Shown here: piece by piece, positions 1,961 to 23,263 of the stretch | Layout of the letters: every line of letters starts with the position of its first letter | Numbering within the stretch: the stretch's first letter is position 1 | Virus record (IMG/VR): IMGVR_UViG_3300031949_000033 | Span: 1-63,171 of that record | DNA from: a virus | Length of the DNA stretch: 63,171 nt | Direction: 5' to 3' (one strand) | Program-made: the position numbers and the translations under genes | The notes under the pieces: model-generated | Databases searched by the model: none | Told to the model about the DNA's origin: nothing | The model's input: the letters and a program-made list of their open reading frames with translations, nothing else

Positions 1961-3829
1961 CTATCCCGATGTGACTGTCGCTGCGACGGTCCATTCAAAG
2001 GTCTTGGCTGCCACGCCGGTCACGATGACGCGCACCTTCCCGCCGGTCACACCGAAGATGCAGGCAGTGTTCGCGTCGCTCTCCACGGCTGCGATCAGGC
2101 TCGTAATGGTGCCGAGCAACGCGGCGTTCTGGTGACTCAACACCCCGTTTGCCGCCGCACTTCCCCCTGAATCGTCGGTGATTATTTCGTCGTCCTCGAA
2201 TTCGCCGACTATCTCGCGTAGCGTCAGCGTGCCCGTCACGCCCGCATCGGAGTCCGCAGTGATGGTCGCCGTCGCCCCGGAGGTACCTCCGGTCAGGGTA
2301 TCGCCCAGCGTGAAGTTCACGGTTTGCGCGTCGTAGTTGAGCGTCGAGCCTGTCCGATGCGCACCTTGGCAAATCCTGAATATCGCATAGTCGATGACGT
2401 TTTTGCCGTTGGCAATGACCGTCGCATCGACGACGACACGCTCACCCGGCGCCAGATCGTAGGCCCAGGCTTCCGTTACCGTGGCGTCGGTTGTCGTCCC
2501 GGATGGCCCCGGCGCGTCGTCGATCGAACGCCGCGTGCGCATCCAACGCGTCGTGTCGGTCCCCGCCAGCGTCACGGTATCTGACTCCAGGCAGTCCTGG
2601 ATGATGATCGCGTTATCCACCGATGTCAGCGTATAGGTCCCGGCCAAGAACTCCACGCCGTCGAAACAGATGTCCTGACAGGTGCCGGTGAAGGTCATGT
2701 TCGATGAAATCGTGCCGCCGTGTACCTTGAAGTCGACCACCGTATTTTCAGTGAACGCAGAGGTGTCGCTGCCGTCCTCCACGGTAAGGTCCGTCGTGTT
2801 GCCGCTGAACCAGCAGCGACGCCAGAGATCGGTATGACGCGCCCCGATGATCTTGAGTGCGACTCCCGTATTGTCCGTGAAAGCGACGAAATCCAGCCCG
2901 TTATGCCAGACCTTATCGTCGACGTACTTCAACTCCACACCGACCGTCGTGCAGTTCGACACCTCGCCGCCGGACCAGAGATTGTGCGAGAATTCCGCGG
3001 CGTTGCCGTGCAACAGCGCGCCGTTGGTGCAGGTGTCGATCGAGAGATTCTTCCAGTTGTTGCGCTGCCCGCCCAATGCTTCCAGGCCGGTCACGAAGCG
3101 CTTGACGAGAACATTGTCGAGGACGATGTTGTCGATATCCACTGCGGCCACCCCTACCGAGCCGGCCGTCGTCGTCACGCCGTCGAGGGTGATTTCCCTG
3201 AATCCGCCCAGCGCACCGCTGATCGTGTAGACATCCGATCCCGCCGAGCATTGCAGCACGGTTGCCGACCTGCTCGCCCCTTGGACAACAACGTCCGCCG
3301 GTACGGTGGTTGCGTTGTGCCCGTAGGTGCCGGGCGGAATGACAACGATTCCACCGCCGTAGCCTGTTGCCGCTCCTATGGCCGCGTCCAATGTCGTCGT
3401 GTTCGTCGAGGCCGAATAATTGGGGTCGGTCGTCTCGAGGAAAACGCCGAAATCGGTGACATAGACGTAGCGCGCGAACAACGACGCGATGGTGTGTGCA
3501 GCCGATCCCCCGGTCGCCAAGCCGGTTGCCGCGCTGGCGTCTGCCGCCGAAAGGCTCTGAAGCGGTACGCGTATCTCGCCGCTCGTCTCCGTGGTGTTGA
3601 TGTTGAGCTTGTAGTCGACATCGATGTACAGCGGCGCGGCGAATTTACCGTAGGTGACCGACCCCACGGTTTGCGAACTCAGCGTTTGCGGATTGTCCGC
3701 GGCGACCGATAGCGCCTCATCGGTGTACACGCTCGCCAGCGTTGTCGTACCGGCGAGCCATATCTTCACCGTCGCGCCGGCGTATCCGGCCCGCCAGGTA
3801 TCGAATTCAAGTATGCGGTGTGCCGCCAT
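1961..3829 (-). CDS. Tailspike / depolymerase with pectate-lyase-type right-handed beta-helix
   Basis: 622-aa ORF. It has the cap motif TTLDAAIGAATGYGGGIVVIPPGTYG followed by a long G/N/V/T-rich beta-helix-like region (ITLDGV, VLDNVLV, NLSIDTC, GNAAEFSHN). GGGGG RBS lies before ATG 3829. Confidence 0.8.
   Translation of the reverse strand: MAAHRILEFDTWRAGYAGATVKIWLAGTTTLASVYTDEALSVAADNPQTLSSQTVGSVTYGKFAAPLYIDVDYKLNINTTETSGEIRVPLQSLSAADASAATGLATGGSAAHTIASLFARYVYVTDFGVFLETTDPNYSASTNTTTLDAAIGAATGYGGGIVVIPPGTYGHNATTVPADVVVQGASRSATVLQCSAGSDVYTISGALGGFREITLDGVTTTAGSVGVAAVDIDNIVLDNVLVKRFVTGLEALGGQRNNWKNLSIDTCTNGALLHGNAAEFSHNLWSGGEVSNCTTVGVELKYVDDKVWHNGLDFVAFTDNTGVALKIIGARHTDLWRRCWFSGNTTDLTVEDGSDTSAFTENTVVDFKVHGGTISSNMTFTGTCQDICFDGVEFLAGTYTLTSVDNAIIIQDCLESDTVTLAGTDTTRWMRTRRSIDDAPGPSGTTTDATVTEAWAYDLAPGERVVVDATVIANGKNVIDYAIFRICQGAHRTGSTLNYDAQTVNFTLGDTLTGGTSGATATITADSDAGVTGTLTLREIVGEFEDDEIITDDSGGSAAANGVLSHQNAALLGTITSLIAAVESDANTACIFGVTGGKVRVIVTGVAAKTFEWTVAATVTSG
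2138..2344 (-). repeat. 69-aa shared module, copy in tailspike C-terminal region
   Basis: TLNYDAQTVNFTLGDTLTGGTSGATATITADSDAGVTGTLTLREIVGEFEDDEIITDDSGGSAAANGVL. It includes a near-identical 35-nt stretch (atggtcgccgtcgccccggaggtacc.ccggtcag) shared with 4340..4546. Confidence 0.8.
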
Positions 3830-3838
3830 GCTGGCCCC

Positions 3839-4849
3839 CTAGTGCTTCCAGATCCCGCCGTAGGGTCGCCGGCGCATGCCGCCGCCCTCTCCCCAGCGCG
3901 CCGTCCGCCTGCCCTGCGGCGATACTCGTTCGCGGTTGTAGTGCGCCTCCAACTCCTTGAATATCTTGTCGCGCTCCTTTTTGATCCGCTCCAGTTTCTC
4001 TGACTTCAACTGCCGAATCGGGCCGTCGCCGACTTCCAGCGCGGTCGCCGCCACCATCCATTTCTGGACGACGCGATCGAATCCGTGCGCCGTGTCTCCG
4101 GCGCCGGACTGTACGGAGAGGTCCGTCTTCACGGTCTGCGGATAGGTCATCGCGACCAGCCTGAGCGTGGTCGTCGAGTCCGATGGTACCGGGTAGACGA
4201 AGAGGTTTTGCGTGTTGTTCGCCAGACGGTCGATGTAGATCGCCTCGGGGTCGCCCGTTGCCGTCTTGTCCGGTATTTCCTCGTAGACGCCCCTACGGAT
4301 GATTTCGATAGGCGTGATGGCATCGCTCGCCGAGGACGGCGTTCCGTTCGCCGTAGCGCTGCCGCCCGCCGCATCGGTAATGGTTTCATCGTCCTCGAAG
4401 TCGCCAAAGATGCGCCGCAGCGTCAGCGTGCCGGTTGCGCCGTCATCGTCATCGGCGATAATGGTCGCCGTCGCCCCGGAGGTACCGCCGGTCAGCTTGG
4501 AGCCTACTGTAAAGGCCGCGCTCTGCGCATCGTAGTCGAGCGTCGCCGCCTTGCCGATATACGCCTTCATCGGATAGACGACGCCCAGGTCCGGGAAAGC
4601 ATCGCCGGCGATGGTCGAGAGCAGGTAGTTATCGGTATTCGCCGTCAGCACGAACTCTATCGTCTTCGGAATCAGCCACTGGGCGATGGATGTCCCCGCC
4701 AGCGAGGCGATTTCAATCTCCATGAAGTCCAAGGCGATGAGAAGCAGATTCGAATCTGCTCCGGTATCGCTCGGCGAGTAGGCGCCAACCTTGCGCAGCA
4801 CGAGTTCGCACAACTCTCGTGCAGTGTACAAGCTGACCGGCGTCGTCAT
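3839..4849 (-). CDS. Head-to-tail adaptor, P22 gp4-like N-terminus, with an inserted 69-aa module
   Basis: 336-aa ORF. The N-terminus ARELCELVLRKVGAYSPSDTGADSNLLLIALDFMEIEIASL resembles the gp4-type adaptor helix pattern as I recall it. The gene lies between the capsid genes and the tailspike. Confidence 0.5.
   Translation of the reverse strand: MTTPVSLYTARELCELVLRKVGAYSPSDTGADSNLLLIALDFMEIEIASLAGTSIAQWLIPKTIEFVLTANTDNYLLSTIAGDAFPDLGVVYPMKAYIGKAATLDYDAQSAAFTVGSKLTGGTSGATATIIADDDDGATGTLTLRRIFGDFEDDETITDAAGGSATANGTPSSASDAITPIEIIRRGVYEEIPDKTATGDPEAIYIDRLANNTQNLFVYPVPSDSTTTLRLVAMTYPQTVKTDLSVQSGAGDTAHGFDRVVQKWMVAATALEVGDGPIRQLKSEKLERIKKERDKIFKELEAHYNRERVSPQGRRTARWGEGGGMRRRPYGGIWKH
4340..4546 (-). 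repeat. 69-aa shared module, copy inserted in adaptor-like protein
   Basis: ATLDYDAQSAAFTVGSKLTGGTSGATATIIADDDDGATGTLTLRRIFGDFEDDETITDAAGGSATANGT aligns residue for residue with tailspike aa 496-564. Confidence 0.8.
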
Positions 4850-13406: not shown

Positions 13407-16400
13407 CTACTTCTCTGCTTTGGCTTGCGCCAACTGTATCCGCAGTTCGTCGACCTGCGCCCTCAATTCCTTGACGGCGTTGATCAGCGGGTACACGAAC
13501 GCAGCCTCACCCAGCATTTGCTGGCCGTTATCGCATTCCGACCAACCGTGGAACGCCGACTTGTCCGACTGCGCGTCCAGCGCTGCCTTCACGTCCTGCG
13601 CGAACATGCCGAGCACCGTCCTCTCAGTATTGACTTTGTTCTCCGGATCGACGCCCCATTCCTTCGGCCATTCGCTGACCGGCTTGAACGTGAACTCCAC
13701 GGGTTGGAGCATGCAGACGAAATCCAGGCCAAGGCGTGAATCCCACAACAGGTTTTTCATGCGCTTGTCCGAGGGTGCGTCCCAGGTCTGGTCGGTATCG
13801 TAGTTGCAGGTGATCGCCCGCGTGCCGTTGCCGAGCGTGATGGCACCGTCAGCGATGCCGGTTACGCCTCTACCCAGCACGATCTGGTCGATGGCGCCGC
13901 CCGCGGAAACCGTTGAATCCGTCCCGACTACGACGTTCCCGGTACCGCTGGTGAGCGTCGTCCCGCCCGCCAACCGACCTACGAGCGTGTTGTTGACGCC
14001 TGTGGTGACCGTTGCCCCCGCCTCGCTGCCGACCGCCGTATTCTCGCCTGAGGCCGTGCCGTTCATGGCCCGCAGCGCGCCGGTGCCGACGGCCACGCAA
14101 TCGTCATCGGTTGCACCAGCGGCGAGAAGCATGCTGTCCGCACCTACGGCGACGTTGGAATTGCCGGTCACGTTCGCGGTCAGCGCATTGAACCCGACGG
14201 CTACGGTATCGATTGCCGTAGTCGAAGCGAGCATCGCATTGCTGCCCAGCGCAGTATTCCCGCCCGAGGCGGAACCGTTCGCCACTTTGCCTGCGTTTGC
14301 ACCGACGAACACATTGTCATCGTCCGTCGCCCCGGCCTGAGCCGCACCGGCGTCCTCACCCATGGCCACATTGCGCAGACCCGTGATGTTCGCAGCGAGA
14401 GCCCTGGCGCCGACTGCCGTGTTGCCGTTCGCCGTCGAAGCTGAGAGCGCCGCGAAGCCAACCGCAGTTGCATCAATGGTAGTCACCGCAGCGTCGAGTG
14501 CCGTCGAGCCGACCGCCGTATTCCCGCCGCTCGCTGAACCGTTGGCGAGCAGACCGGCGTTGTGACCGATAAACACGTTGTCGTCATCGGTCGCCCCGGC
14601 CTGAGCCGCACCGGCGTCCTCCCCGACCGCTACGTTCCTCAGCCCGGTCACGTTCGCCGTGAGCGCGCGTGCACCGACCGCCGTGTTGCCATCTGCGGTT
14701 GAGGCATTCAACGCTTGGAAGCCGACGGCAGTGGCGTCAATCGACGTTACCGCAGTGGCCAGCGCACCGCTACCTACAGCCACGTCACCGCCCGAGGCCG
14801 TGCCATTCAGCAGCGTGAGCGCTTGGAATCCTACCGCCACGCAGTCGTCATCCGTCGCACCGGCTGCGGTCTTCATCGCATCGGCCCCGACTACCGTGTT
14901 CTGGTTGCCTGTGACCTGCGCGGCAAGGGCATCGAAGCCGACGGCGACGCAATCAATGGAAGTCGTCGAAGCCGTCATCGCGTTACTGCCGACCGCCGTA
15001 TTCCCGCCGCTCGCCGAGCCGTTCGCTGTGGCGCCAGCCAAGTTGCCGAGGAAGGTATTGTCGTTGTCGTTCGCGCCTGCGGACGCCGCGCCCGCATCGA
15101 CCCCCACTGCGACGTTACGCAGTCCAGCGACATTGGCCGTGAGCGCCCGCGCACCCATCGCCGTGTTGCCGTTTGCGGTACTGGCGCCCAGCGCGTTGAA
15201 TCCAACCGCAGTCGCATCGACCGAAGTCACGGCTGCATCCAAGGCTTTCGACCCCACAGCTGTATTGCCGCCCGAAGCCGAACCATTGGCGAGCAGACCG
15301 GCGTTATAGCCGATAAACACGTTGTCGTCGTCCGTTGCACCGGCCTGCGCGCCGCCTGCGTCCTCTCCGACCGCTACGTTCCTCAGGCCAGTCACATTGG
15401 CGTCCAGCGCGCGTGCCCCGACTGCGGTGTTTCCATTCGCCGTGCTCGCCGAAAGAGCGTTGAACCCGAGCGCCGTTGCATCAATCGTGGTAACAGCCGC
15501 GTCCAGTGCGTTCGCACCGACCGCCGTGTTTCCACCTGAAGCGGTACCGTTGATCAACTTTCCGGCGCCGTCCCCAATGAGGGTATTGTCGTCATCGGTT
15601 ACCCCTGCCATCGCCGCACCGGCGTCAACCCCGACCGCGACATTGCGCAAGCCCGTGACATTGGCCGCGAGAGCCCTGGCGCCAAGCGCCGTGTTGCCGT
15701 CAGCCGTTGAAGCCGAAAGGGCGTTGAACCCGACGGCCGTGGCGTCTACGGTCGTGACCGCCGCATCCAGCGCCTTGCTGCCGACCGCCGTGTTGCCACC
15801 CGAAGCCGAACCATTCGACAGTAACCCGGCGTTGTAGCCGATGAACACGTTGTCGTCATCCGTCGCCCCGGCCTGAGCCGCACCGGCGTCCTCGCCCATC
15901 GCCACATTGCGCAAGCCAGTGACATTGGCCGCCAGAGCGCGCGCCCCGACTGCGGTGTTCCCGTTGGCGGTTGAGGCTGAGAGCGCATTGAAGCCGACGG
16001 CAGTCGCATCGATTGTCGTGACTGCGGCGTCTAAAGCTTTCGACCCCACAGCCGTATTGCCGCCCGAAGCCGAGCCATTAGCGAGCAGACCGGCGTTGTG
16101 ACCGATGAAGACGTTGTCGTTGTCGTTCGCCCCGGCCGCCGCACCGCCTGCATCGAGGCCGACCGCGACGTTCCTGACGCCAGCCACATTAGCATCGAGG
16201 GCCCCGGCGCCGACCGCCGTATTCCCCGCTGCCGTGCTGGCTGCCAGCGCATCCTTGCCGAGCGCCGTTGCGCCAGCGCCGGTCTGATTCGCACCCAGCG
16301 CGTTGAACCCAACCGCCGTGCAGTCAATCGCCGTCGTGCCTGCGTTGAATGCCGTCGAGCCGACCACCGTATTGCCGCCGCTGGCACTGCCGTTCGCCAG

Positions 16401-17504
16401 CAACCCGGCGTTGTGACCGATAAACACGTTGTCGTTGTCGTTCGCCCCGGCCGCCGCACCGCCCGCATCAACGCCAACGGCGACGTTGCGTACGCCAGCG
16501 ACATTGGCGTCCAGCGCTCGCGCGCCCACGGCTACGTTCCCGCTCGCCGTGCTGGCACCCAGCGCGTTGAACCCGACAGCGGTTGCATCAATCGATGTCA
16601 CGGCTGCATCCAGCGCCTTGCTGCCGACCGCCGTGTTGCCGCCGCTGGCACTGCCATTCGCCAGCAGACCGGCGTTATAGCCGACGAAGACGTTGTCGTC
16701 GTCCGTTGCACCGGCCTGCGCGCCGCCTGCGTCCTCTCCGACCGCTACGTTCCTCAGCCCGGTCACATTGGCGTCCAGCGCTCGCGCCCCCATCGCCGTG
16801 TTGCCGTTTGCGGTGCTTGCGCCCAGCGCGTTGAATCCAACCGCCGTGGCGTCAATGCTGGTGACTGCCGCATCGAGGGCTCCGCTTCCTACTGCGGTAT
16901 TCCCGCCGCTCGCCGAACCATTGGCCAGCTTCAGCGCGTTGTAGCCGACGGCGACGTTGTTGTCGTCCTCGGTACCAGCTGCCGTGAGCAAGGCATCCTT
17001 GCCGAGCGCAGTGTTCTGGTTGCCGGTAATGTTGGCGCTGAGCGCGCCGATACCGATGGCGACATTATTGGCACCCGTGGTATTGGCGTCCAACGCCGTT
17101 CCGCCGAGCGCCTGGTTCGTCGCCACCGCTCCGGCACCGAGAATGTTCACGAGGCGGAAATCGCCGATATCCTTGTTGCCGTCGACGACCACGGCCTTGC
17201 TGGCGGCTACCGTGCCAGGAGTTACGCCGTCGACCACGGTCCCCACACCGAAGTCGCCGTTGTAAACCCAGTCCGCCGAGGTCGGACCGATGGCGCGGTA
17301 GAAGTCCAAGGCGTCCGCACTGGACGTATTGGCGCACCATTCTCCCCGGAAGTTCGGCGTGATGTTGTTGGTCGGATCCCCTGCGTATTCCCTGTAGCCC
17401 AGCACGCTTGCTACCTCGCCGCGGTTCACCATCGGCGGGACGATTTCCTCCATCACGTCGACACTGCTTTTGCCCTTCTGCTGCATCTTGGTTTGAATTG
17501 CCAT
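13407..17504 (-). CDS. Giant fibre protein: YadA-head-like tandem repeats plus C-terminal S74-type intramolecular chaperone domain
   Basis: 1365-aa ORF. About 12 tandem units read like NTAVGxxALxAxxxxxxATAVGFNAL...NVAVGxDAG...DDDNVFxGxNAG..ANGSASGG. The C-terminal 121 aa start SDKRMKN (SDxRxK auto-cleavage motif) at 13407..13772. Confidence 0.8.
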   Translation of the reverse strand: MAIQTKMQQKGKSSVDVMEEIVPPMVNRGEVASVLGYREYAGDPTNNITPNFRGEWCANTSSADALDFYRAIGPTSADWVYNGDFGVGTVVDGVTPGTVAASKAVVVDGNKDIGDFRLVNILGAGAVATNQALGGTALDANTTGANNVAIGIGALSANITGNQNTALGKDALLTAAGTEDDNNVAVGYNALKLANGSASGGNTAVGSGALDAAVTSIDATAVGFNALGASTANGNTAMGARALDANVTGLRNVAVGEDAGGAQAGATDDDNVFVGYNAGLLANGSASGGNTAVGSKALDAAVTSIDATAVGFNALGASTASGNVAVGARALDANVAGVRNVAVGVDAGGAAAGANDNDNVFIGHNAGLLANGSASGGNTVVGSTAFNAGTTAIDCTAVGFNALGANQTGAGATALGKDALAASTAAGNTAVGAGALDANVAGVRNVAVGLDAGGAAAGANDNDNVFIGHNAGLLANGSASGGNTAVGSKALDAAVTTIDATAVGFNALSASTANGNTAVGARALAANVTGLRNVAMGEDAGAAQAGATDDDNVFIGYNAGLLSNGSASGGNTAVGSKALDAAVTTVDATAVGFNALSASTADGNTALGARALAANVTGLRNVAVGVDAGAAMAGVTDDDNTLIGDGAGKLINGTASGGNTAVGANALDAAVTTIDATALGFNALSASTANGNTAVGARALDANVTGLRNVAVGEDAGGAQAGATDDDNVFIGYNAGLLANGSASGGNTAVGSKALDAAVTSVDATAVGFNALGASTANGNTAMGARALTANVAGLRNVAVGVDAGAASAGANDNDNTFLGNLAGATANGSASGGNTAVGSNAMTASTTSIDCVAVGFDALAAQVTGNQNTVVGADAMKTAAGATDDDCVAVGFQALTLLNGTASGGDVAVGSGALATAVTSIDATAVGFQALNASTADGNTAVGARALTANVTGLRNVAVGEDAGAAQAGATDDDNVFIGHNAGLLANGSASGGNTAVGSTALDAAVTTIDATAVGFAALSASTANGNTAVGARALAANITGLRNVAMGEDAGAAQAGATDDDNVFVGANAGKVANGSASGGNTALGSNAMLASTTAIDTVAVGFNALTANVTGNSNVAVGADSMLLAAGATDDDCVAVGTGALRAMNGTASGENTAVGSEAGATVTTGVNNTLVGRLAGGTTLTSGTGNVVVGTDSTVSAGGAIDQIVLGRGVTGIADGAITLGNGTRAITCNYDTDQTWDAPSDKRMKNLLWDSRLGLDFVCMLQPVEFTFKPVSEWPKEWGVDPENKVNTERTVLGMFAQDVKAALDAQSDKSAFHGWSECDNGQQMLGEAAFVYPLINAVKELRAQVDELRIQLAQAKAEK
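13960..17060 (-). repeat. In-frame tandem coding repeats, about 264 nt (88 aa) per unit, some units longer
   Basis: Long near-identical DNA blocks recur through the region. One example is gttgtcgtcgtccgttgcaccggcctgcgcgccgcctgcgtcctctccgaccgctacgttcctcag at about 15320 and about 16690. Boundaries are approximate. Confidence 0.75.
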
Positions 17505-17576: not shown

Positions 17577-19760
17577 CTATACCGGCGGCCCTTTGGTTGG
17601 CGGTGCGGCGAGTCGCCCCGACGCCCCTCTGCCCTCTGGCATGCCATGAATGATTCCTGCCGGACTCTCCGGCGGCGCTCCCGGCGTGCCCATCGGTGGC
17701 TCCTGTTTGCCGGGTACGCCGTGCGGCTGCGGTGCCGGGATCTGGTTCGGCAGGATGAGTTGCCCTTGCTTGAGCGCTGCCGCCAAGTCGTCTGCCGTCA
17801 GCAATCCCTGCGCCCGCAAATAAGCCGAGAGCCGCGCCTTGATGAGCGTCTTCTGCGGCGCGCTCGACAGGTCGACGGCGATATCCTGGATCATCGGGAT
17901 CGGCAAGATGCCTTTCTCGATAAGCTCCATAAGCTCCTCGAACTGCGCGTTGAGGAAGGTCGCCGACAGGCTGGTTTCGTCGACCGCCACGTCGTAGCGA
18001 CCGATGGTTACGTCGTTTACGATGCGCCCTGTGGCATCGGCGATGTTGATGCCGACCGCGTTCCAACTCCCGTTGATGTCCTGCACGCGCAACAGGCGCG
18101 GTTCGGTGTAGAAGCTCTGGATGAGTTCGAGCTTCTTGCGGCCACACATGCGCTTGCTGCGGCGCGCGTTGTCCATGTAGATTTCGATGCCGAGGACGGA
18201 TTGTCTCTGCCTGGCTTCGATGGCCCGCCCCGATTGGACGCGATCCAATTGGCCGAGCGCGCTGTCGTTGATGCCGAGTATTTCCTTGAGGTCGCCGGTA
18301 TTGGCTTTCTCCAGACGCTCCAAGGCGTTCGGCGGAAGGGGCGGCCGGATCTGTTCCGGTTTGCCGTCCGAGCCCCCTTTCCACTCAATGTTGATTCCGG
18401 GTGCCGCACCGAAGTTTTCGATCTTCTCTTTCTCGGCGTCCTCGAGCGCGTTCACATGCCACATCCACCCGGCGAAGGCCTGACGGGTGATGACATCCGT
18501 TTCAGCGGATCGGCGCTTGTTGATCTCCGTTTGCGGGTCCAAGCCGTCCTCCACGATGCCGCGCGTCTTGCCGCGCCGGAAGTACGGAAAGAACGGGATC
18601 TGCGTGAAGCTCTTGTACTTGCTCCAGTCGTCGTAGATGATGATATCGCCGAGAATGGTCGTCCAGCGCACACGCTTGGTCGGTCGCCATTGCACGCGCA
18701 GCGGATTGGCCTTGCCCTGTCTGGCGTACTGTTCGGCGCCCCACATGAGAATTCTTTGCACCGCGGCTTGATCCAGGCGATCTGGAAGCGGTATCTTGTC
18801 GCCGGTCTCCAGGTTGATGATATGCCTGACCATGCTGCGGATACGGTGCTGCATTTCGATCAACCTGATGTTCTTGCGGTAGGGATCGACGACGTTGGCG
18901 ATGTAGTTGTGCACGCTGTAGCCGCCCACCATGCCGTCAGGCTGCTGACCGCCAAAGGTGCGCCATGGCGTGACCTCGGCAAGAGCATCCATCATGTCAG
19001 AGGGCACCCCGCCACGGTACCCGGAACTCCGCACCAGCGGTTCCACCAAACCCGATATCTGCCGCCCGTAGGTGTACTCGACCTCATCCAGGTTGACCCA
19101 TCGGCCCTCGCTGACATGGCCCCAGTCGTCCGGGTCGTAGCTGTCCGCATCGGCGTCCGGCCGGATCGTAAACGGGTCCTTCGAGGTTACCCGCGCGTCG
19201 CCGAGATCGTTGCGCTCGAAACTCAGCCGCCAGTCGTAATAGCCCCTGCCGCCGACGATACCGTCCAGGAAGCACTCGGCATCGACATAGGCTTCGTCGC
19301 AGTTCATGGCGATTTGCTTGGACTGCTTGGTCAACAGATCGGCGACGGCCTCGTCGCTCGCCGTATCGTCGGTGGGCAGATAACGGTTGTCGACGCGGTT
19401 GTTACGGTGATAGCCAATAACCAAACGTACCAGGGCACCGAGCTTGTTGAGGGTGAGCGTGGGGCGGTCTTCCTCGATCGCCTGTCTTATCTCGTCCGCG
19501 CTCCACTGTTTCCCCTCCACGAAGTCGAAGCACTTCTTGGCGATATCCGACCACGCCTGCAAGGCCATGTCGTCGCGCTGGTAGCGCTCGACCATGAGCA
19601 GCAACAGTTCCGGGTTGTGAGCTGCCGGTAGAATCCCGTTGGCGCCCATCATCGGGTTCCACGTCGGATCTTCCCCCCAGATCGGGTCGGTTTTCGCACC
19701 CGGGATCGGCGGCGCCCAGGAAAACCTGCTGGGTATGAAGAGGTTGTCAACGGCTCCCAT
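17577..19760 (-). CDS. Portal protein
   Basis: 727 aa from Met52 of ORF 17577..19913. Its ATG overlaps the TerL stop (TGATG). It contains FVEGKQWSADEIRQAIEEDRPTLTLNKL, a portal/connector-like motif, and lies downstream of the terminase. Confidence 0.75.
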   Translation of the reverse strand: MGAVDNLFIPSRFSWAPPIPGAKTDPIWGEDPTWNPMMGANGILPAAHNPELLLLMVERYQRDDMALQAWSDIAKKCFDFVEGKQWSADEIRQAIEEDRPTLTLNKLGALVRLVIGYHRNNRVDNRYLPTDDTASDEAVADLLTKQSKQIAMNCDEAYVDAECFLDGIVGGRGYYDWRLSFERNDLGDARVTSKDPFTIRPDADADSYDPDDWGHVSEGRWVNLDEVEYTYGRQISGLVEPLVRSSGYRGGVPSDMMDALAEVTPWRTFGGQQPDGMVGGYSVHNYIANVVDPYRKNIRLIEMQHRIRSMVRHIINLETGDKIPLPDRLDQAAVQRILMWGAEQYARQGKANPLRVQWRPTKRVRWTTILGDIIIYDDWSKYKSFTQIPFFPYFRRGKTRGIVEDGLDPQTEINKRRSAETDVITRQAFAGWMWHVNALEDAEKEKIENFGAAPGINIEWKGGSDGKPEQIRPPLPPNALERLEKANTGDLKEILGINDSALGQLDRVQSGRAIEARQRQSVLGIEIYMDNARRSKRMCGRKKLELIQSFYTEPRLLRVQDINGSWNAVGINIADATGRIVNDVTIGRYDVAVDETSLSATFLNAQFEELMELIEKGILPIPMIQDIAVDLSSAPQKTLIKARLSAYLRAQGLLTADDLAAALKQGQLILPNQIPAPQPHGVPGKQEPPMGTPGAPPESPAGIIHGMPEGRGASGRLAAPPTKGPPV

Positions 19761-22700
19761 CAGAGGCGCCCTCCACGCCGGCGCCATGGCTTGGTTCCTG
19801 CCACGCCACGCGCGGTCAATCGCCTCTGCCATTGCGGCGTTGTGTTCAACATGGCCCCCACGGATTCGACGGTGACATATTTCAACGCCAGATACTGTAA
19901 CCCATCGTGACAATTCGAGACGAGCACCCCGTTTGCGTAGAATGTGTGGGTATCCTCGACGGTCAAGTCATAGACGCGCTCTCTTCGACCGTGACAGGGC
20001 TTTACGCCAGCAACCGTTAGAGCATGTTCTGGTGCGTGCGTAGCGGTTGATCTTGAAAGCTGACCCGCAGACTGCACAGCTTCGTTCCTCGTCGTCGACT
20101 CCTGAATCGCGTCTCGCCTTTGACTGACAGGCTGCCGAACAATATCCCTTCTTCGGCGCAAGGGTAACATATCGTTTTTCGCATATCCTGCAAATTCTCT
20201 CCACTGGCTGTCGATTGCTCCAAGCGCGCTTTGCCTGCTCTGCATGCCAACGTCTCCCTTCGTCGCTCGCGTGCCATTGCCTTGCCGCCGGGATAACGCA
20301 GTCGAGCATGTGTCGTTTTGCCTCGTCGGGGTTTTCTCTGACGCGTTTTCGTGAGTGATATGCTGCGTGCGCAGTGTCGCTAAGTAAGTGAAGATTTTCG
20401 ATCGCGTTATGGTCTTTATCTTCGTCGCCGTGATGAATGTCGAACCCGTGAGGGATCGGCCCATTGTGATGCCGCCAAATATCCCGATGCAGATACGTGC
20501 CGCCGAACCTATTGTCGCAACGGTAGTATCCTTCAGGCTTGCGATAATACGTGCGAGCGTTGAAGACAACGGCTTTGTTCTTTCTTGGTCTTCCCATTGT
20601 GCCCCGGCCATCGTTTTCAATACGTCGCCGTATTGTAGTGCATCTGCTCTGACCCTGCCGCGATCCAGGATAAACTCGTGGTCCGCCGTGCAGCACACCG
20701 AATCACAATTTGAGAATCGCACGGTGACGAGGTTGTTAGACATCCTGTTCATCGTCGCCGTTACCCTGCGCGCTCCGTTATGCGTTAGCACCACGTCGCC
20801 GACACTGATCGATTCGATTGGTACACCACCCTCTGCCGTGGCTACGAGCGTGCCCGCGACGAAACAGTGCGAGTATTTGTTTTTGTAAGCCTCATTCTGG
20901 TATCTGGCCTCTCCTGTGACCTGAATGCGCCTATAGTGGTAGCCTCCCTTGAATCCCTTGAGCAATGTTTTCGCGGAACTGTCGATGAGGATGGCCGGTT
21001 CACCGTCGGTCAGTTTGGTGAGAAACCAGGCCACCGCCTCGCGCCGCGGCTGGAATTCGTAGGCTTTGGCCTTCTCCCATTCCCAGTGCCCCTCGTCGAG
21101 AATATCGGCGCAACTGACCTCATCGGACTGCGCCCGCTCTCCAACCTGCGGATCGCAGACGATCCTGTAGCGCCTGTCAACACCGAATCGGTTGGCAAGG
21201 TAGGGCTTCAGAGCGTCGCTCAAAAACGCGCGCAACCCCATACTGCGTTCCCTGGCGCAGCACTCTCCCAATACGAGTAGTTGCCCTTTCGGGCTGCACT
21301 GCCCGGGGACCGCCGCCGGCGACAGTCCGAAGTCCAGGCCGATGTCGATCGGCATGCCTGATATCGGCGTGAGATCGCGTTTCACCCCATGGATTCGCTG
21401 ATTGAATTCCGGGTAACACGGGATGCCGTCAATGACCTTGCCGTAGTTGTTCAGCAGGTAGGTGCTGATCCAGTCCTCGCTCTTGCCGGCGACCAGTTGC
21501 AGCCAGTAGGCCATGCCCATCGGCTGATTGACGACGTTCTCCGCCTCAGGATTCGGGAAGTAACTGCCGTCGATCTTGAGCAGCGCCGGTGGCTGGTCGA
21601 AAAATTCGATGAGCGGTCGATGCACACCGATGCTGGCCAGAACCGCGCGCAGCTTCGCCATCATTTCCTGAATTTCCTTTCCGCGCTCTTCGTCGTCCGG
21701 TCCGACATCCAGGTCGTGCCACCAGTGGTCGTCGTCCATGGAGTTCGTGTCCATGATCACGCCCGCCCAGGTGAACGGAGCACCATCCTTCTTCAGCGGG
21801 AAGCGGCCGACCCGGGCGCTGCCGTCGTCCAATACGAGCTTGTCGAGTTGTCCGGCCTCGTTCAACCATAGCCCGGTCAGGTCCAGCGATTTCAGCTTGC
21901 CGATCGCCGCAGGGTGATCACAGGACATGAAGAGCACTTCCAAATGCATGATGGTGCCGTCGTCCAAAGCAAGCTTGACCGTTGCCTCAATCGGGGCCCC
22001 CCAATTCATCTTGACAACGTCTTCCCCAAACCATGACAAGAACGTGAAAATAGTTGTCGACTCAAGCTGCGGGTAGGTATTACGTATAGCCGCCCAGCGC
22101 GTCCGCCGTATGCCGCGGTCATCCGGTTCCTGCTGGACTGCGCGTAGCGCTATCTCGGCGACGCAGGCGACCGATTTGCCGCTGTTTCCAGTGACGCAGA
22201 TCGAGTCGTTGCGGCGCGTGACGAAAAACCCGGTGGATGTGTGGAAGCAGTATTTCTTGCCGTCCACGGAAGGCACGCGCTCGATGGGTATTTTCCGGCT
22301 GCCGTTGCGGATACCGGCGTATCCTCGCGACGATCCTATCACCCTGTATGACCGACTCCAGCCCGGCTTACGTCCTTCTTGAGTTCCAACCGATGCACGC
22401 CGTCCGCACGCCGAAAACGCGTAGGCGACGAATTCCGCGCAGGCACGATCGGTCGTGTAGTAGCCCCAGTCGCCGTAACCCTGGTCTTCGCTGCCGTCCC
22501 AGCGCAAGCATTCGGCGGCGATGATCTTTAGTTGCGCCGCGCTCGCCTGCCAGTATTTGGCCAAACTCTTGTTGCGCTCCGGCGCTTCGAAGCGAAACGT
22601 GGTTTCGGTAGGACGGTTCGGGTTGTCGTATTCGCTCCATGCGATGCCGGCCATGACAAGCAATTGTCGGACCCGCAATTTTTTGTCGGCGCGACGCACG

Positions 22701-23263
22701 CAGACCGTACAACGCGTCGTTTTTGTGCGCTGCGAAAACGAGCCGTCCGCGCAGACCATGACCATGACGCGCAGCTCGGCGTCGTTGAGGCCGACACCCA
22801 CAGCGTTCTCCGGCGGCGGGAAGCAGCACGGAACCAATCCGGGCCAGCCGTCTTTCAGGTGCTGGTGCTGGAATGCCAAGCCGGCCGCCCTGATTTGCCT
22901 GAGCACGCCGGGTTTGGCTTTGACGAAATACGGGATCAAGTGCTCGTCGCTCGCCATGATGTCGAGCCCGCGCGACTTCAGATGGATGAAAGCGTCGCAG
23001 TCGGCCACGATACGCGAGACCGCCTCGAACCATGAACGGTTGTTCTCCGGGTCGACGACGAGAATTTCCTCGCCTGCCCAGCGATCCATGCGCACCCAGC
23101 CGGTGCGGGTCATAACCTCGTGGTCTGCGGAATTGCACCCGTATGGACCGCGGATACCGCGGATGAACGCGTTGCTCTTGTGAAATCGGGCCGGAGTTTT
23201 CTCGGCGCGGTAGTGGAATCGGAATTCCTGACGCCTGCTGCCGTAGCTTTGGATGGATGTCAT
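19760..23263 (-). CDS. terL: Terminase large subunit precursor (1167 aa) carrying two inteins; mature extein about 531 aa
   Basis: Walker A GPYG/SGKS is split by insert 1. Walker B-like LDLTGLWLNEA is present. The nuclease motif KNKYSH/CHDGLQYL is split by insert 2. The gene lies upstream of the portal. Confidence 0.85.
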   Translation of the reverse strand: MTSIQSYGSRRQEFRFHYRAEKTPARFHKSNAFIRGIRGPYGCNSADHEVMTRTGWVRMDRWAGEEILVVDPENNRSWFEAVSRIVADCDAFIHLKSRGLDIMASDEHLIPYFVKAKPGVLRQIRAAGLAFQHQHLKDGWPGLVPCCFPPPENAVGVGLNDAELRVMVMVCADGSFSQRTKTTRCTVCVRRADKKLRVRQLLVMAGIAWSEYDNPNRPTETTFRFEAPERNKSLAKYWQASAAQLKIIAAECLRWDGSEDQGYGDWGYYTTDRACAEFVAYAFSACGRRASVGTQEGRKPGWSRSYRVIGSSRGYAGIRNGSRKIPIERVPSVDGKKYCFHTSTGFFVTRRNDSICVTGNSGKSVACVAEIALRAVQQEPDDRGIRRTRWAAIRNTYPQLESTTIFTFLSWFGEDVVKMNWGAPIEATVKLALDDGTIMHLEVLFMSCDHPAAIGKLKSLDLTGLWLNEAGQLDKLVLDDGSARVGRFPLKKDGAPFTWAGVIMDTNSMDDDHWWHDLDVGPDDEERGKEIQEMMAKLRAVLASIGVHRPLIEFFDQPPALLKIDGSYFPNPEAENVVNQPMGMAYWLQLVAGKSEDWISTYLLNNYGKVIDGIPCYPEFNQRIHGVKRDLTPISGMPIDIGLDFGLSPAAVPGQCSPKGQLLVLGECCARERSMGLRAFLSDALKPYLANRFGVDRRYRIVCDPQVGERAQSDEVSCADILDEGHWEWEKAKAYEFQPRREAVAWFLTKLTDGEPAILIDSSAKTLLKGFKGGYHYRRIQVTGEARYQNEAYKNKYSHCFVAGTLVATAEGGVPIESISVGDVVLTHNGARRVTATMNRMSNNLVTVRFSNCDSVCCTADHEFILDRGRVRADALQYGDVLKTMAGAQWEDQERTKPLSSTLARIIASLKDTTVATIGSAARICIGIFGGITMGRSLTGSTFITATKIKTITRSKIFTYLATLRTQHITHENASEKTPTRQNDTCSTALSRRQGNGTRATKGDVGMQSRQSALGAIDSQWREFAGYAKNDMLPLRRRRDIVRQPVSQRRDAIQESTTRNEAVQSAGQLSRSTATHAPEHALTVAGVKPCHGRRERVYDLTVEDTHTFYANGVLVSNCHDGLQYLALKYVTVESVGAMLNTTPQWQRRLTARGVAGTKPWRRRGGRL
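19913..20866 (-). mobile_element. Intein 2 (aa 800-1117 of TerL), inserted in the nuclease motif
   Basis: Begins CFVAGTLVATAEGGVPIESISVGDVVLTHNG, contains CTADHEF (block B), and ends VYDLTVEDTHTFYANGVLVSN followed by Cys. The in-frame middle part is not protein-like. Confidence 0.75.
19968..20597 (-). CDS. HNH homing endonuclease ORF nested out of frame inside intein 2
   Basis: MGRPRKNKAVVFNARTYYRKPEGYY...GFDIHHGDEDKDHNAIENLHLLSDTAHAAYH (HNH motif) plus two C-terminal CxxC...CxxxC clusters. The frame is offset by 2 relative to TerL. The full ORF-track extent is 19968..20696. Confidence 0.7.
   Translation of the reverse strand: MGRPRKNKAVVFNARTYYRKPEGYYRCDNRFGGTYLHRDIWRHHNGPIPHGFDIHHGDEDKDHNAIENLHLLSDTAHAAYHSRKRVRENPDEAKRHMLDCVIPAARQWHASDEGRRWHAEQAKRAWSNRQPVERICRICEKRYVTLAPKKGYCSAACQSKARRDSGVDDEERSCAVCGSAFKINRYARTRTCSNGCWRKALSRSKRARL
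22184..23137 (-). mobile_element. Intein 1 (aa 43-360 of TerL) with LAGLIDADG-type endonuclease, inserted in the Walker A P-loop
   Basis: Begins CNSADHEVMTRTGW and has a SDEH block. It carries two LAGLIDADG-like motifs (LRVMVMVCADGSF and IAAECLRWDGSE) and ends FFVTRRNDSICVTGN followed by Ser. Excision restores GPYGSGKS. Confidence 0.75.

Follow-up and report, generated by a model that had tools for sequence, protein, structure and literature searches.

A phage terminase intein that contains a complete HNH endonuclease gene in another reading frame

We analyzed a 63,171-nucleotide stretch of viral DNA (IMG/VR record IMGVR_UViG_3300031949_000033, positions 1 to 63,171; hereafter, the window), in which the gene for the large subunit of terminase (TerL) contains two inteins. 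The second of these, intein 2, is very probably a functional class 1 intein in the nuclease domain of TerL, and its two Hint (splicing) modules, residues 1-89 and 280-318, surround a read-through of a complete HNH homing endonuclease gene that lies in the +2 frame. The nested endonuclease probably spreads the intein. That TerL can contain inteins is common knowledge, and the intein alone is ordinary; the overprinted HNH gene and its link to fractured genes carry the interest. The features of the gene are as follows, with a slash for each splice junction:

19760..23263, minus strand: TerL precursor gene, 1167 codons plus stop (from the open reading frame and its translation), with two inteins; the mature spliced TerL is predicted to have 531 amino acids
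22184..23137, minus strand: intein 1, TerL residues 43-360, in the Walker A P-loop (GPYG/C...N/SGKS); a separate element
19913..20866, minus strand: intein 2, 318 codons, TerL residues 800-1117; class 1, with Cys1 ... Asn318 followed by Cys+1
20600..20866, minus strand: N-terminal Hint module, intein residues 1-89, with block A CFVAGTLVATAEG and block B T60-A-D-H63 at about 20678..20689
20030..20599, minus strand: linker in its TerL-frame reading (intein residues 90-279); open, unconserved, rich in T, R, A and S, and predicted to be disordered
19968..20597, minus strand: nested HNH gene in the +2 (that is, -1) frame of TerL, 209 codons, ATG at 20597..20595 and TGA at 19970..19968
19913..20029, minus strand: C-terminal Hint module, intein residues 280-318, with blocks F and G RVYDLTVEDTHTFYANGVLVSN; the ~20 codons at its start also encode the HNH C-terminus
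19910..19912, minus strand: Cys+1 codon (TGT), the first residue of the C-extein, which stands in for the Pro (CCG) of intein-free alleles
19760..19912, minus strand: C-extein, TerL residues 1118-1167 plus stop; it begins C-H-D-G-L-Q-Y and holds the third conserved acidic residue of the nuclease

The precursor matches phrog_2 (terminase large subunit). Within it, intein 2 reads ...KNKYSH/CFVAGTLVATAEGG...CTADHEF...VYDLTVEDTHTFYANGVLVSN/CHDGLQYLALKY; its Cys1 codon is TGT (20864..20866), its block F is VYDLTV, and it ends VYDLTVEDTHTFYANGVLVSN/C. Three Pfam families match above their cutoffs: Intein_splicing (40.2 bits, cutoff 35.8), Hint_2 (37.2, cutoff 28.4), and PT-HINT (32.7, cutoff 27.7). 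These matches are confined to the first ~90 and the last ~30 residues, with Hint_2 covering residues 1-40, PT-HINT covering 7-91, and Intein_splicing reaching residue 318. In an alignment of 31 homologous inteins, C1, T60, H63 and N318 are invariant, and the residue at +1 is Cys except in a few relatives, which have Ser. We used the same 31 sequences to build an AlphaFold2 model of intein 2, translated in the TerL frame. The pLDDT score (short for predicted local distance difference test) was 94-97 for residues 1-88, which are all-beta, 91-93 for residues 280-318, and 30-44 for residues 92-279. When the structured part was compared to the PDB with Foldseek, all 15 of the 15 best matches were inteins or Hint domains, with a probability of 1.00; they include gp41-1, DnaB, the RecA mini-intein, and Hedgehog. 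The initial annotation of the window, which had proposed this intein from the sequence, named the failure to predict a Hint fold as one refutation of it, but a confident Hint fold was obtained, with pLDDT above 90 for both modules.

Mature TerL is obtained only after intein 1 is also removed, which is why intein 1 enters this account. Removing residues 43-360 and 800-1117 leaves 531 amino acids, and this spliced protein is 75% identical, across 100% of its length, to an intein-free homolog of 531 amino acids (P0074). The search with spliced TerL also returned hundreds of homologs of 480-560 amino acids. Across the site of intein 2, P0074 reads KNKFSHPHDGLQY, i.e. KNKFSH-P-HDGLQY, and homologs with an empty site read KNK[Y/F]SH-P-HD[A/G]LQY. 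Because these homologs have Pro at the empty site, the Cys+1 of intein 2 occupies the place of Pro. Given the Pfam matches and the exact restoration of an intein-free TerL, intein 2 is real and its boundaries are those of the initial annotation: 19913..20866 corresponds exactly to residues 800-1117, on the minus strand; the motifs quoted for blocks A, B, F and G are all located in the TerL translation; and excision rejoins KNKYSH to CHDGLQY, in a 531-residue product that is colinear with P0074. The invariant catalytic residues, the Hint fold and the colinear empty homologs also bear out the proposal of a genuine second intein in TerL.

The two ends are all that is intein, however. The initial annotation took the entire 318 amino acids as one ordinary intein, and this part of it failed: the central ~190 amino acids have no family match in a Pfam scan, are predicted to be disordered, and have just two Gly residues that are conserved as columns in the 31-intein alignment. 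No canonical in-frame endonuclease domain was found between blocks B and F of intein 2. At TerL residues ~880-1100, the GC content by codon position departs from the normal pattern, and in just that region the +2 frame has no stop for 244 codons.

The +2 frame encodes a complete HNH protein, with an HNH_3 nuclease domain, a helical linker, and two Cys4 zinc-ribbon modules. It matches HNH_3 (2.2e-12) and phrog_15471, HNH endonuclease (1.9e-37). Across 27 homologs, the residues H37, H55, H56, N64, N68, H77 and H81 and the two Cys4 clusters are invariant. The AlphaFold2 model of this protein has a mean pLDDT of 91.8, with zinc-ribbon-like C-terminal modules, and its best match in the PDB is the homing endonuclease I-HmuI (1u3e, probability 1.00). 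The gene fits tightly between the Hint modules. Its ATG is one codon past the end of the N-terminal module, and its stop codon (TGA) lies within the TAT-GAC (Y-D) codons of block F, so about 20 codons, which encode the C-terminal helix of HNH and also the strands with which the C-terminal Hint module begins, are truly dual-coding. The ATG is formed from Glu-Trp codons in the TerL frame (GAA TGG), which is why a Trp is conserved in the otherwise unconserved linker. Throughout the HNH gene, the TerL frame of the window has no stop codons. We read the linker, with high confidence, as a read-through of the HNH gene that has no function of its own.

Comparisons of related loci show which frame is under selection. 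Between the window and a relative that is 93% identical (L001), 26 of the 41 substitutions in the overlap are at the third position of HNH codons, and the ratio of synonymous to non-synonymous changes is 26:15 in the HNH frame versus 11:30 in the TerL frame. For six independent pairs of loci, pooled, the ratio in the overlap is 389:285 in the HNH frame versus 142:533 in the TerL frame (p = 3e-44). In the Hint modules (six pairs), it is 226:159 in the TerL frame versus 58:325 in the HNH frame (p = 2e-37). In the overlap, the HNH frame is the one under purifying selection and the TerL frame is relaxed, while both Hint halves are intact and under selection in the TerL frame.

To judge from stop codons in related sequences, the host frame is also kept open by selection. 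Among the loci with a contiguous intein that we tested, 40 of 40 have no stop codons in the host frame, as compared to about 2-4 expected per locus. The host frame is almost always the +1 frame relative to HNH, which is intrinsically the poorest in stops (about 2 expected, versus about 9 in the other frame). The sole contiguous relative with HNH in the +1 frame of TerL (L060, 2659-4605) has none where about 9 would be expected, so its stops were apparently purged by selection.

A "distant" blastn search with the TerL gene against 50,697 phage records found no match, and neither did a scan of viral contigs with the HNH protein alone; a profile built from five sequences was required. Searches with HNH profiles gave 44 viral loci, 17 loci from genome assemblies (Thiobacillus, Bacteroidales, Ignavibacteriaceae, Planctomycetota, Chloroflexota, and other metagenome-assembled genomes), and 218 metagenomic matches, 80 of which were taken in. 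We mapped the boundaries of the inteins in these relatives with hidden Markov models and alignments. The first four related terminases, whose genes have GC contents of 0.42-0.61, all have the same nested open reading frame in the same relative frame (4/4). The distinct loci, besides the window, were:

Contiguous intein with HNH in the +2 frame: 79 loci
Contiguous intein with HNH in the +1 frame: 1 locus (L060)
Interrupted ("fractured"): 8 loci
Free-standing HNH without Hint modules: 17 loci
Cut by the end of the contig: 6 loci
HNH in frame with TerL: 0 loci

The nested family is large, with at least 80 distinct contiguous loci, and the GC content of the HNH region ranges from 0.28 to 0.64 among the 79 loci with HNH in the +2 frame. 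HNH is in frame in 0 of the 105 related loci that could be classified.

The intein's position within TerL had to be worked out indirectly. Pfam gives only a weak match of TerL to Terminase_3, and searches of PDB sequences with spliced TerL and with a 45-sequence profile found no terminase, so the catalytic residues could not be mapped by sequence. Comparing the TerL profile to a single TerL of the Terminase_3C type with hhalign was uninformative (probability 0.7%). The 45 intein-free homologs that we compared all share D326, D386 and H481, and every one of them has D or E at position 484. In L056, a fractured relative that Pfam is able to classify, the N-extein alone matches positions 1-138 of the 155 in Terminase_3C, which is an RNaseH-like domain; if the exteins are joined, the match extends over 1-153 and the score rises from 37 to 49 bits. 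In the TerL nuclease of phage G20c, the indispensable metal ligands are D294, D347 and D429, and H427 contributes to catalysis (PMC5389553). The order and spacing of the conserved acidic and His residues in the window's TerL are comparable, with H427/D429 as the analogue of the motif at the insertion site. Together, the conservation, the completion of Terminase_3C in L056 and the analogy to G20c place intein 2 within the nuclease domain, after the conserved His and before the third acidic residue. That the site is the active-site motif of the nuclease, ...YSH-x-x-[D/E], just before the putative third catalytic carboxylate, is well supported, and the initial annotation was right to put it in the conserved C-terminal nuclease motif. 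Since intein 2 splits the catalytic motif, TerL should be unable to cut DNA before the intein is removed, and packaging would depend on splicing.

This motif is a hot spot for insertions. In some relatives, the intein is one residue further on (SH[V/I/P]/C-[D/E]A). Another homolog, P0100, has a different and larger intein two residues upstream of the window's site (KNKY/CVDTET...VTGN/SHPVEA), and P0107 has yet another intein in the ATPase domain (...AIIRN/C...SSQ/TYGELKS). With the two sites in the window, this makes at least four distinct intein sites in this clade of TerL. In a survey of mycobacteriophages, TerL inteins were found only in the ATPase domain (PMC5050341).

As suggested in the initial annotation, we surveyed relatives for empty and occupied sites, and both types of alleles were found. 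The closest homolog of TerL, P0074, lacks both inteins. In P0075 and P0108, site 1 has an intein that is homologous to intein 1, and site 2 is empty. Just 3 of the top 120 homologs of the exteins have the intein 2 type (P0004, P0017, and P0118). At the DNA level, an intein-less terL (L149) reads ...AGCCAC CCG CACGATGGG... at the site, as compared to ...TCGCAC/intein/TGT CACGATGGG... in the window; the site sequence of L149 is ...TACAAAAACAAGTTCAGCCACCCGCACGATGGGTTACAGTATCTG.... The 21 nucleotides on the 3' side of the insertion point (CACGATGGGTTACAGTATCTG; 19889..19909 in the window and ~7450-7470 in L149) are the same in the window, L001 and the intein-less allele L149, even though the TerL proteins are only 75% identical. 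These 21 nucleotides may be the recognition sequence of HNH or else a co-conversion tract. One relative, L051, is a decayed copy, with a 164-residue intein (~3637..4194) and a remnant of HNH of 77 codons (77 amino acids), which fits the degeneration stage of a homing cycle. The patchy distribution of intein 2, the decayed copy, and the conserved flank give indirect support to homing.

From the anatomy, the predicted folds, the conserved layout, the frame-specific selection and the existence of both empty and occupied alleles, we infer splicing, separate translation of HNH, its cleavage specificity, and homing, as follows. The late terL mRNA would be translated straight through the HNH gene in the stop-free TerL frame, which would yield a precursor with a disordered loop. 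The Hint halves would fold together and splice via Cys1, the T-x-x-H motif, the Asp of block F, Asn318 and Cys+1, and so release a TerL of 531 amino acids with Cys in place of the ancestral Pro. Ribosomes would also start separately at the internal ATG (20597) and make the HNH protein of 209 amino acids. In a co-infection, HNH would cut intein-less terL at or near the conserved motif, and recombinational repair would copy the intein, along with the HNH gene, into the cut alleles.

Across the family, the sequence before the HNH gene is consistent with separate initiation. A Shine-Dalgarno-like motif is present 4-17 nucleotides before the ATG in 19 of 29 loci, versus 4.7 expected. Most relatives have a GGAG-type Shine-Dalgarno sequence there, for instance ggagagaatgaATG in L004. 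In L004 and L008-10, a stop codon in the HNH frame (TGA) is directly before the ATG, which argues against a fusion by frameshifting.

Several observations weigh against our interpretation. The window and L001 have a poor Shine-Dalgarno sequence before the ATG (ccggggcacaATG; 20598..20620 in the window, minus strand), and we found no sigma-70 promoter for HNH on the coding strand inside the intein. HNH therefore probably uses the terL mRNA, and its expression in this phage may be weak. The penultimate residue of intein 2 is Ser, while His is common at this position of inteins. The mapping of the carboxylates relies on conservation and analogy rather than on a structure of this TerL. And for the window alone, an open host frame is only mildly improbable: if the HNH protein is held fixed, 7-12% of synonymous resamplings and 1.6% of codon shuffles leave the TerL frame free of stops (P ~0.02-0.12). 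For this locus by itself, the open frame is only suggestive, and the two-frame argument rests on the comparison of loci.

We considered several other explanations. Because the TerL frame is open throughout, and homologs can be aligned to the entire intein (100%) with 31-39% identity, this could be a canonical bifunctional intein whose center, in the TerL frame, is a divergent endonuclease or DNA-binding domain, with the +2 open reading frame being incidental. But the center has no family match, low pLDDT and no conserved columns, and TerL-frame changes there are mostly non-synonymous (142:533) while the HNH frame is biased towards synonymous changes; the full-length similarity is a by-product of the conservation of HNH. 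This explanation is highly unlikely. It is even less likely, to the point of being barely credible, that HNH is truly in frame and was displaced by two compensating indel errors in sequencing or assembly. The 2-12% of resamplings of the window in which the host frame is open by chance, given the HNH protein, leave some room for such an artifact, but the same frame relation is found at 79 other distinct loci, from independent samples and assemblers, and at none is HNH in frame. Also, HNH has its own ATG and stop codon, and in several relatives another stop is directly before the ATG. A third possibility is that a programmed -1 frameshift from the TerL frame makes a fusion of the N-extein, the N-terminal half of the intein (IntN) and HNH, with no independent initiation. 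Upstream of its ATG, HNH in the window has 35 further open codons in its own frame, and no strong Shine-Dalgarno sequence precedes the ATG, as a frameshift would allow. Yet this upstream stretch is not conserved (14 codons in L001 and 0 in L004 and L008-10), and for this reason we rejected a conserved fusion; furthermore, Shine-Dalgarno-like motifs are enriched before the ATG across the family, and the alignment to the phrog profile implies that the protein starts near the ATG. We consider frameshifting very unlikely.

Two other explanations concern function. Intein 2 could be decayed and unable to splice, with the insert being tolerated or the gene being dead; the penultimate Ser and the long disordered insert between the Hint halves could be taken as signs of this. 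However, TerL is essential and this is the sole terL found in the window, all of the catalytic residues are intact and invariant, the Hint modules are under purifying selection in the TerL frame (226:159 versus 58:325), and the host frame is free of stops in every contiguous locus. Also, the insert splits the catalytic motif of the nuclease, so the unspliced protein should be inactive. We see scant chance that the intein is dead. Alternatively, the nested HNH might be an accessory nuclease for packaging that works with terminase, like gp74 of HK97, and might be kept for the benefit of the phage instead of being a homing enzyme. Some free-standing relatives are right between terL and the portal gene, partnerships between HNH proteins and terminases are established in cos phages (general knowledge; mentioned in PMC11855218), and the nested layout is old and stable across phyla. 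But HNH is absent from the closest relatives of TerL (P0074, at 75% identity, and most of the top 120 homologs), and an essential accessory should not be so dispensable. The combination of HNH_3 with zinc ribbons, and the best match to I-HmuI, point to the architecture of a site-specific homing enzyme; homing genes classically sit as this one does, in an intein that interrupts a conserved DNA motif; and a decayed copy exists (the 77-residue remnant in L051). Overall, a role in packaging seems unlikely, and we favor a splicing intein with a nested homing endonuclease.

The eight fractured loci (L056, L113, L118, L126, L128, L136, L138, and L039) share a layout: the N-terminal open reading frame stops right after IntN, the HNH gene is next, and a short open reading frame that overlaps the 3' end of HNH encodes the C-terminal part of the intein (IntC) and the C-extein. 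For example, L056 (2400-4757) reads ...DVKVLTL*, where the asterisk is a stop, then HNH, and then MDGEITMRVKSVKKTKKRCSVYDLEV...VIVHN/SIDAVRYG. The pairs of IntN and IntC from fractured terL are candidates for natural split inteins. In the window, the TerL frame is uninterrupted, and there is no such break after IntN. The fractured loci are mostly from gut or rumen samples with low GC.

Among the free-standing loci, L053, L061 and L043 have HNH between terL and the portal gene, so it adjoins the 3' end of terL, which is where the intein site is. Free-standing homing endonucleases whose target is a neighboring gene usually sit in just such a place. In a tree of HNH proteins, the three architectures are interleaved, and the well-supported branches require at least seven changes of state. 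The median GC content of the HNH region is 0.365 for fractured loci, 0.38 for free-standing loci, and 0.535 for nested loci. These patterns suggest that a mini-intein was invaded by a free-standing endonuclease whose target it occupied, that the resulting arrangement survived where the host frame happened to be open, and that it tends to break into a split intein in AT-rich genomes.

Inteins with an endonuclease in another frame were first described in 2025-26, and the HNH variant that we describe here is widespread. In inteins of actinobacteriophages, an endonuclease VII-like gene is present in "frame 3" (bioRxiv 10.1101/2025.01.02.630785), and the authors propose that these originated when a free-standing endonuclease gene invaded an intein. 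As in the window, those inteins are contiguous, some of them are in terL, the center is unstructured in the host frame, and the endonuclease is in the +2 frame of the same strand. They differ from the window's family in that the latter encodes an I-HmuI-like endonuclease of the HNH_3 type with two zinc ribbons, is found in uncultured and mostly non-actinobacterial phages, is inserted in the nuclease domain of TerL, and includes free-standing and split forms. In the other described case, a cyanobacterial dnaX intein has a LAGLIDADG endonuclease in a +2 open reading frame (Phillips, DeSimone & Gogarten, bioRxiv 10.64898/2026.09.14.751524; as cited there, this layout was first flagged by Gorbalenya in 1998). 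Here too, the endonuclease overlaps a disordered linker between the Hint halves, the endonuclease frame is under purifying selection while the host frame is relaxed, and, as in the window's family, a Shine-Dalgarno sequence is upstream of the nested start. The host of that intein is a cellular gene rather than phage terL, and its endonuclease is LAGLIDADG rather than HNH. The window's endonuclease is neither endonuclease VII-like nor LAGLIDADG, and as an I-HmuI-like member of HNH_3 / phrog_15471, it places this element outside of the described out-of-frame sets.

Other known systems share parts of this arrangement. In fractured genes, an endonuclease gene of the free-standing type is at the intein's insertion point for endonucleases, and phage terminases are among the hosts (Dassa et al. 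2009, PMC2677866). The 3' end of the endonuclease gene overlaps the coding region of the C-terminal intein, as in the window, and eight relatives of the window's element share the interrupted layout. In contrast, the host frame of the window is unbroken, so its intein is contiguous and is predicted to splice in cis. The endonucleases that Dassa et al. described are GIY-YIG and Vsr-like, and HNH was only predicted (PMC2677866). The ShiLan domain is an HNH endonuclease that is hidden, out of frame, in the gene for a phage DNA methylase (Arsenault et al. 2025, PMC11855218); as in the window's element, the HNH gene has zinc fingers and occupies the third frame of an insert through which the host frame stays open, but ShiLan lacks Hint modules and is not an intein, whereas the window's element has intact Hint modules on both sides. 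Finally, I-HmuI itself (1u3e) shares with the window's HNH the catalytic motif of HNH_3 and an elongated, multi-module architecture for binding DNA. I-HmuI is encoded by a gene in a group I intron and nicks DNA, while the window's putative endonuclease is encoded within an intein and has two Cys4 zinc-ribbon modules instead of the C-terminal domains of I-HmuI. Our literature searches found no description of an HNH_3-type endonuclease that is overprinted in an intein, of an intein at this site in the nuclease domain of TerL, or of nested, split and free-standing forms coexisting in one lineage.

The other intein in this terL is of a different kind. The center of intein 1 is in frame and keeps the normal codon bias of the TerL frame (GC at third codon positions of 0.75-0.85), so it is a conventional intein, unlike intein 2; we saw no long open reading frame with a family match in its alternative frames. 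We also considered whether inteins 1 and 2 might be kin, as the initial annotation had remarked that both are 318 amino acids long, and rejected this. They have no meaningful similarity (the best blastp hit has E = 0.004 over 52 residues), and since the sequences are essentially unrelated, the equal lengths are a coincidence. Elsewhere in the window, 13407..17504 (minus strand) encodes a protein of 1365 amino acids with many near-identical repeats that are rich in Ala, Gly and Asn (NTAVG..ALDANV...). Its C-terminal segment resembles the self-cleaving chaperone domain of tail fibers, and its repeats create many long spurious open reading frames on both strands.

For annotation, the lesson is that a gene caller reports a single "terminase" of 1167 amino acids and overlooks an entire nuclease gene, and that it would be wrong to treat the 190-residue center of the intein as a protein domain. 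The locus is also a clean example of overlapping genes in which one frame is held open purely to avoid stop codons. On the practical side, the Hint halves would tolerate a disordered loop of 190 residues, and the split relatives are candidate trans-splicing inteins for protein engineering. The family, with at least 80 contiguous, 8 split and 17 free-standing members, can be used to test the model of "splicing first, endonuclease later" as well as Dassa's model for the origin of split inteins. More speculatively, and we would put the chances at somewhat below even, this one HNH lineage may show a full path that has been traveled repeatedly: the gene becomes overprinted, in the +2 frame, on a mini-intein that occupies its own target site, and this leads to a "fractured" terL that is joined by a split intein. 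In this scenario, the density of stop codons, or GC content, would set which state is stable, and the host frame would always be the +1 frame of HNH because that frame is the poorest in stops. If this is true, then overprinting would be no rare accident but a long-lived and general way for inteins to gain endonucleases and for natural split inteins to arise.

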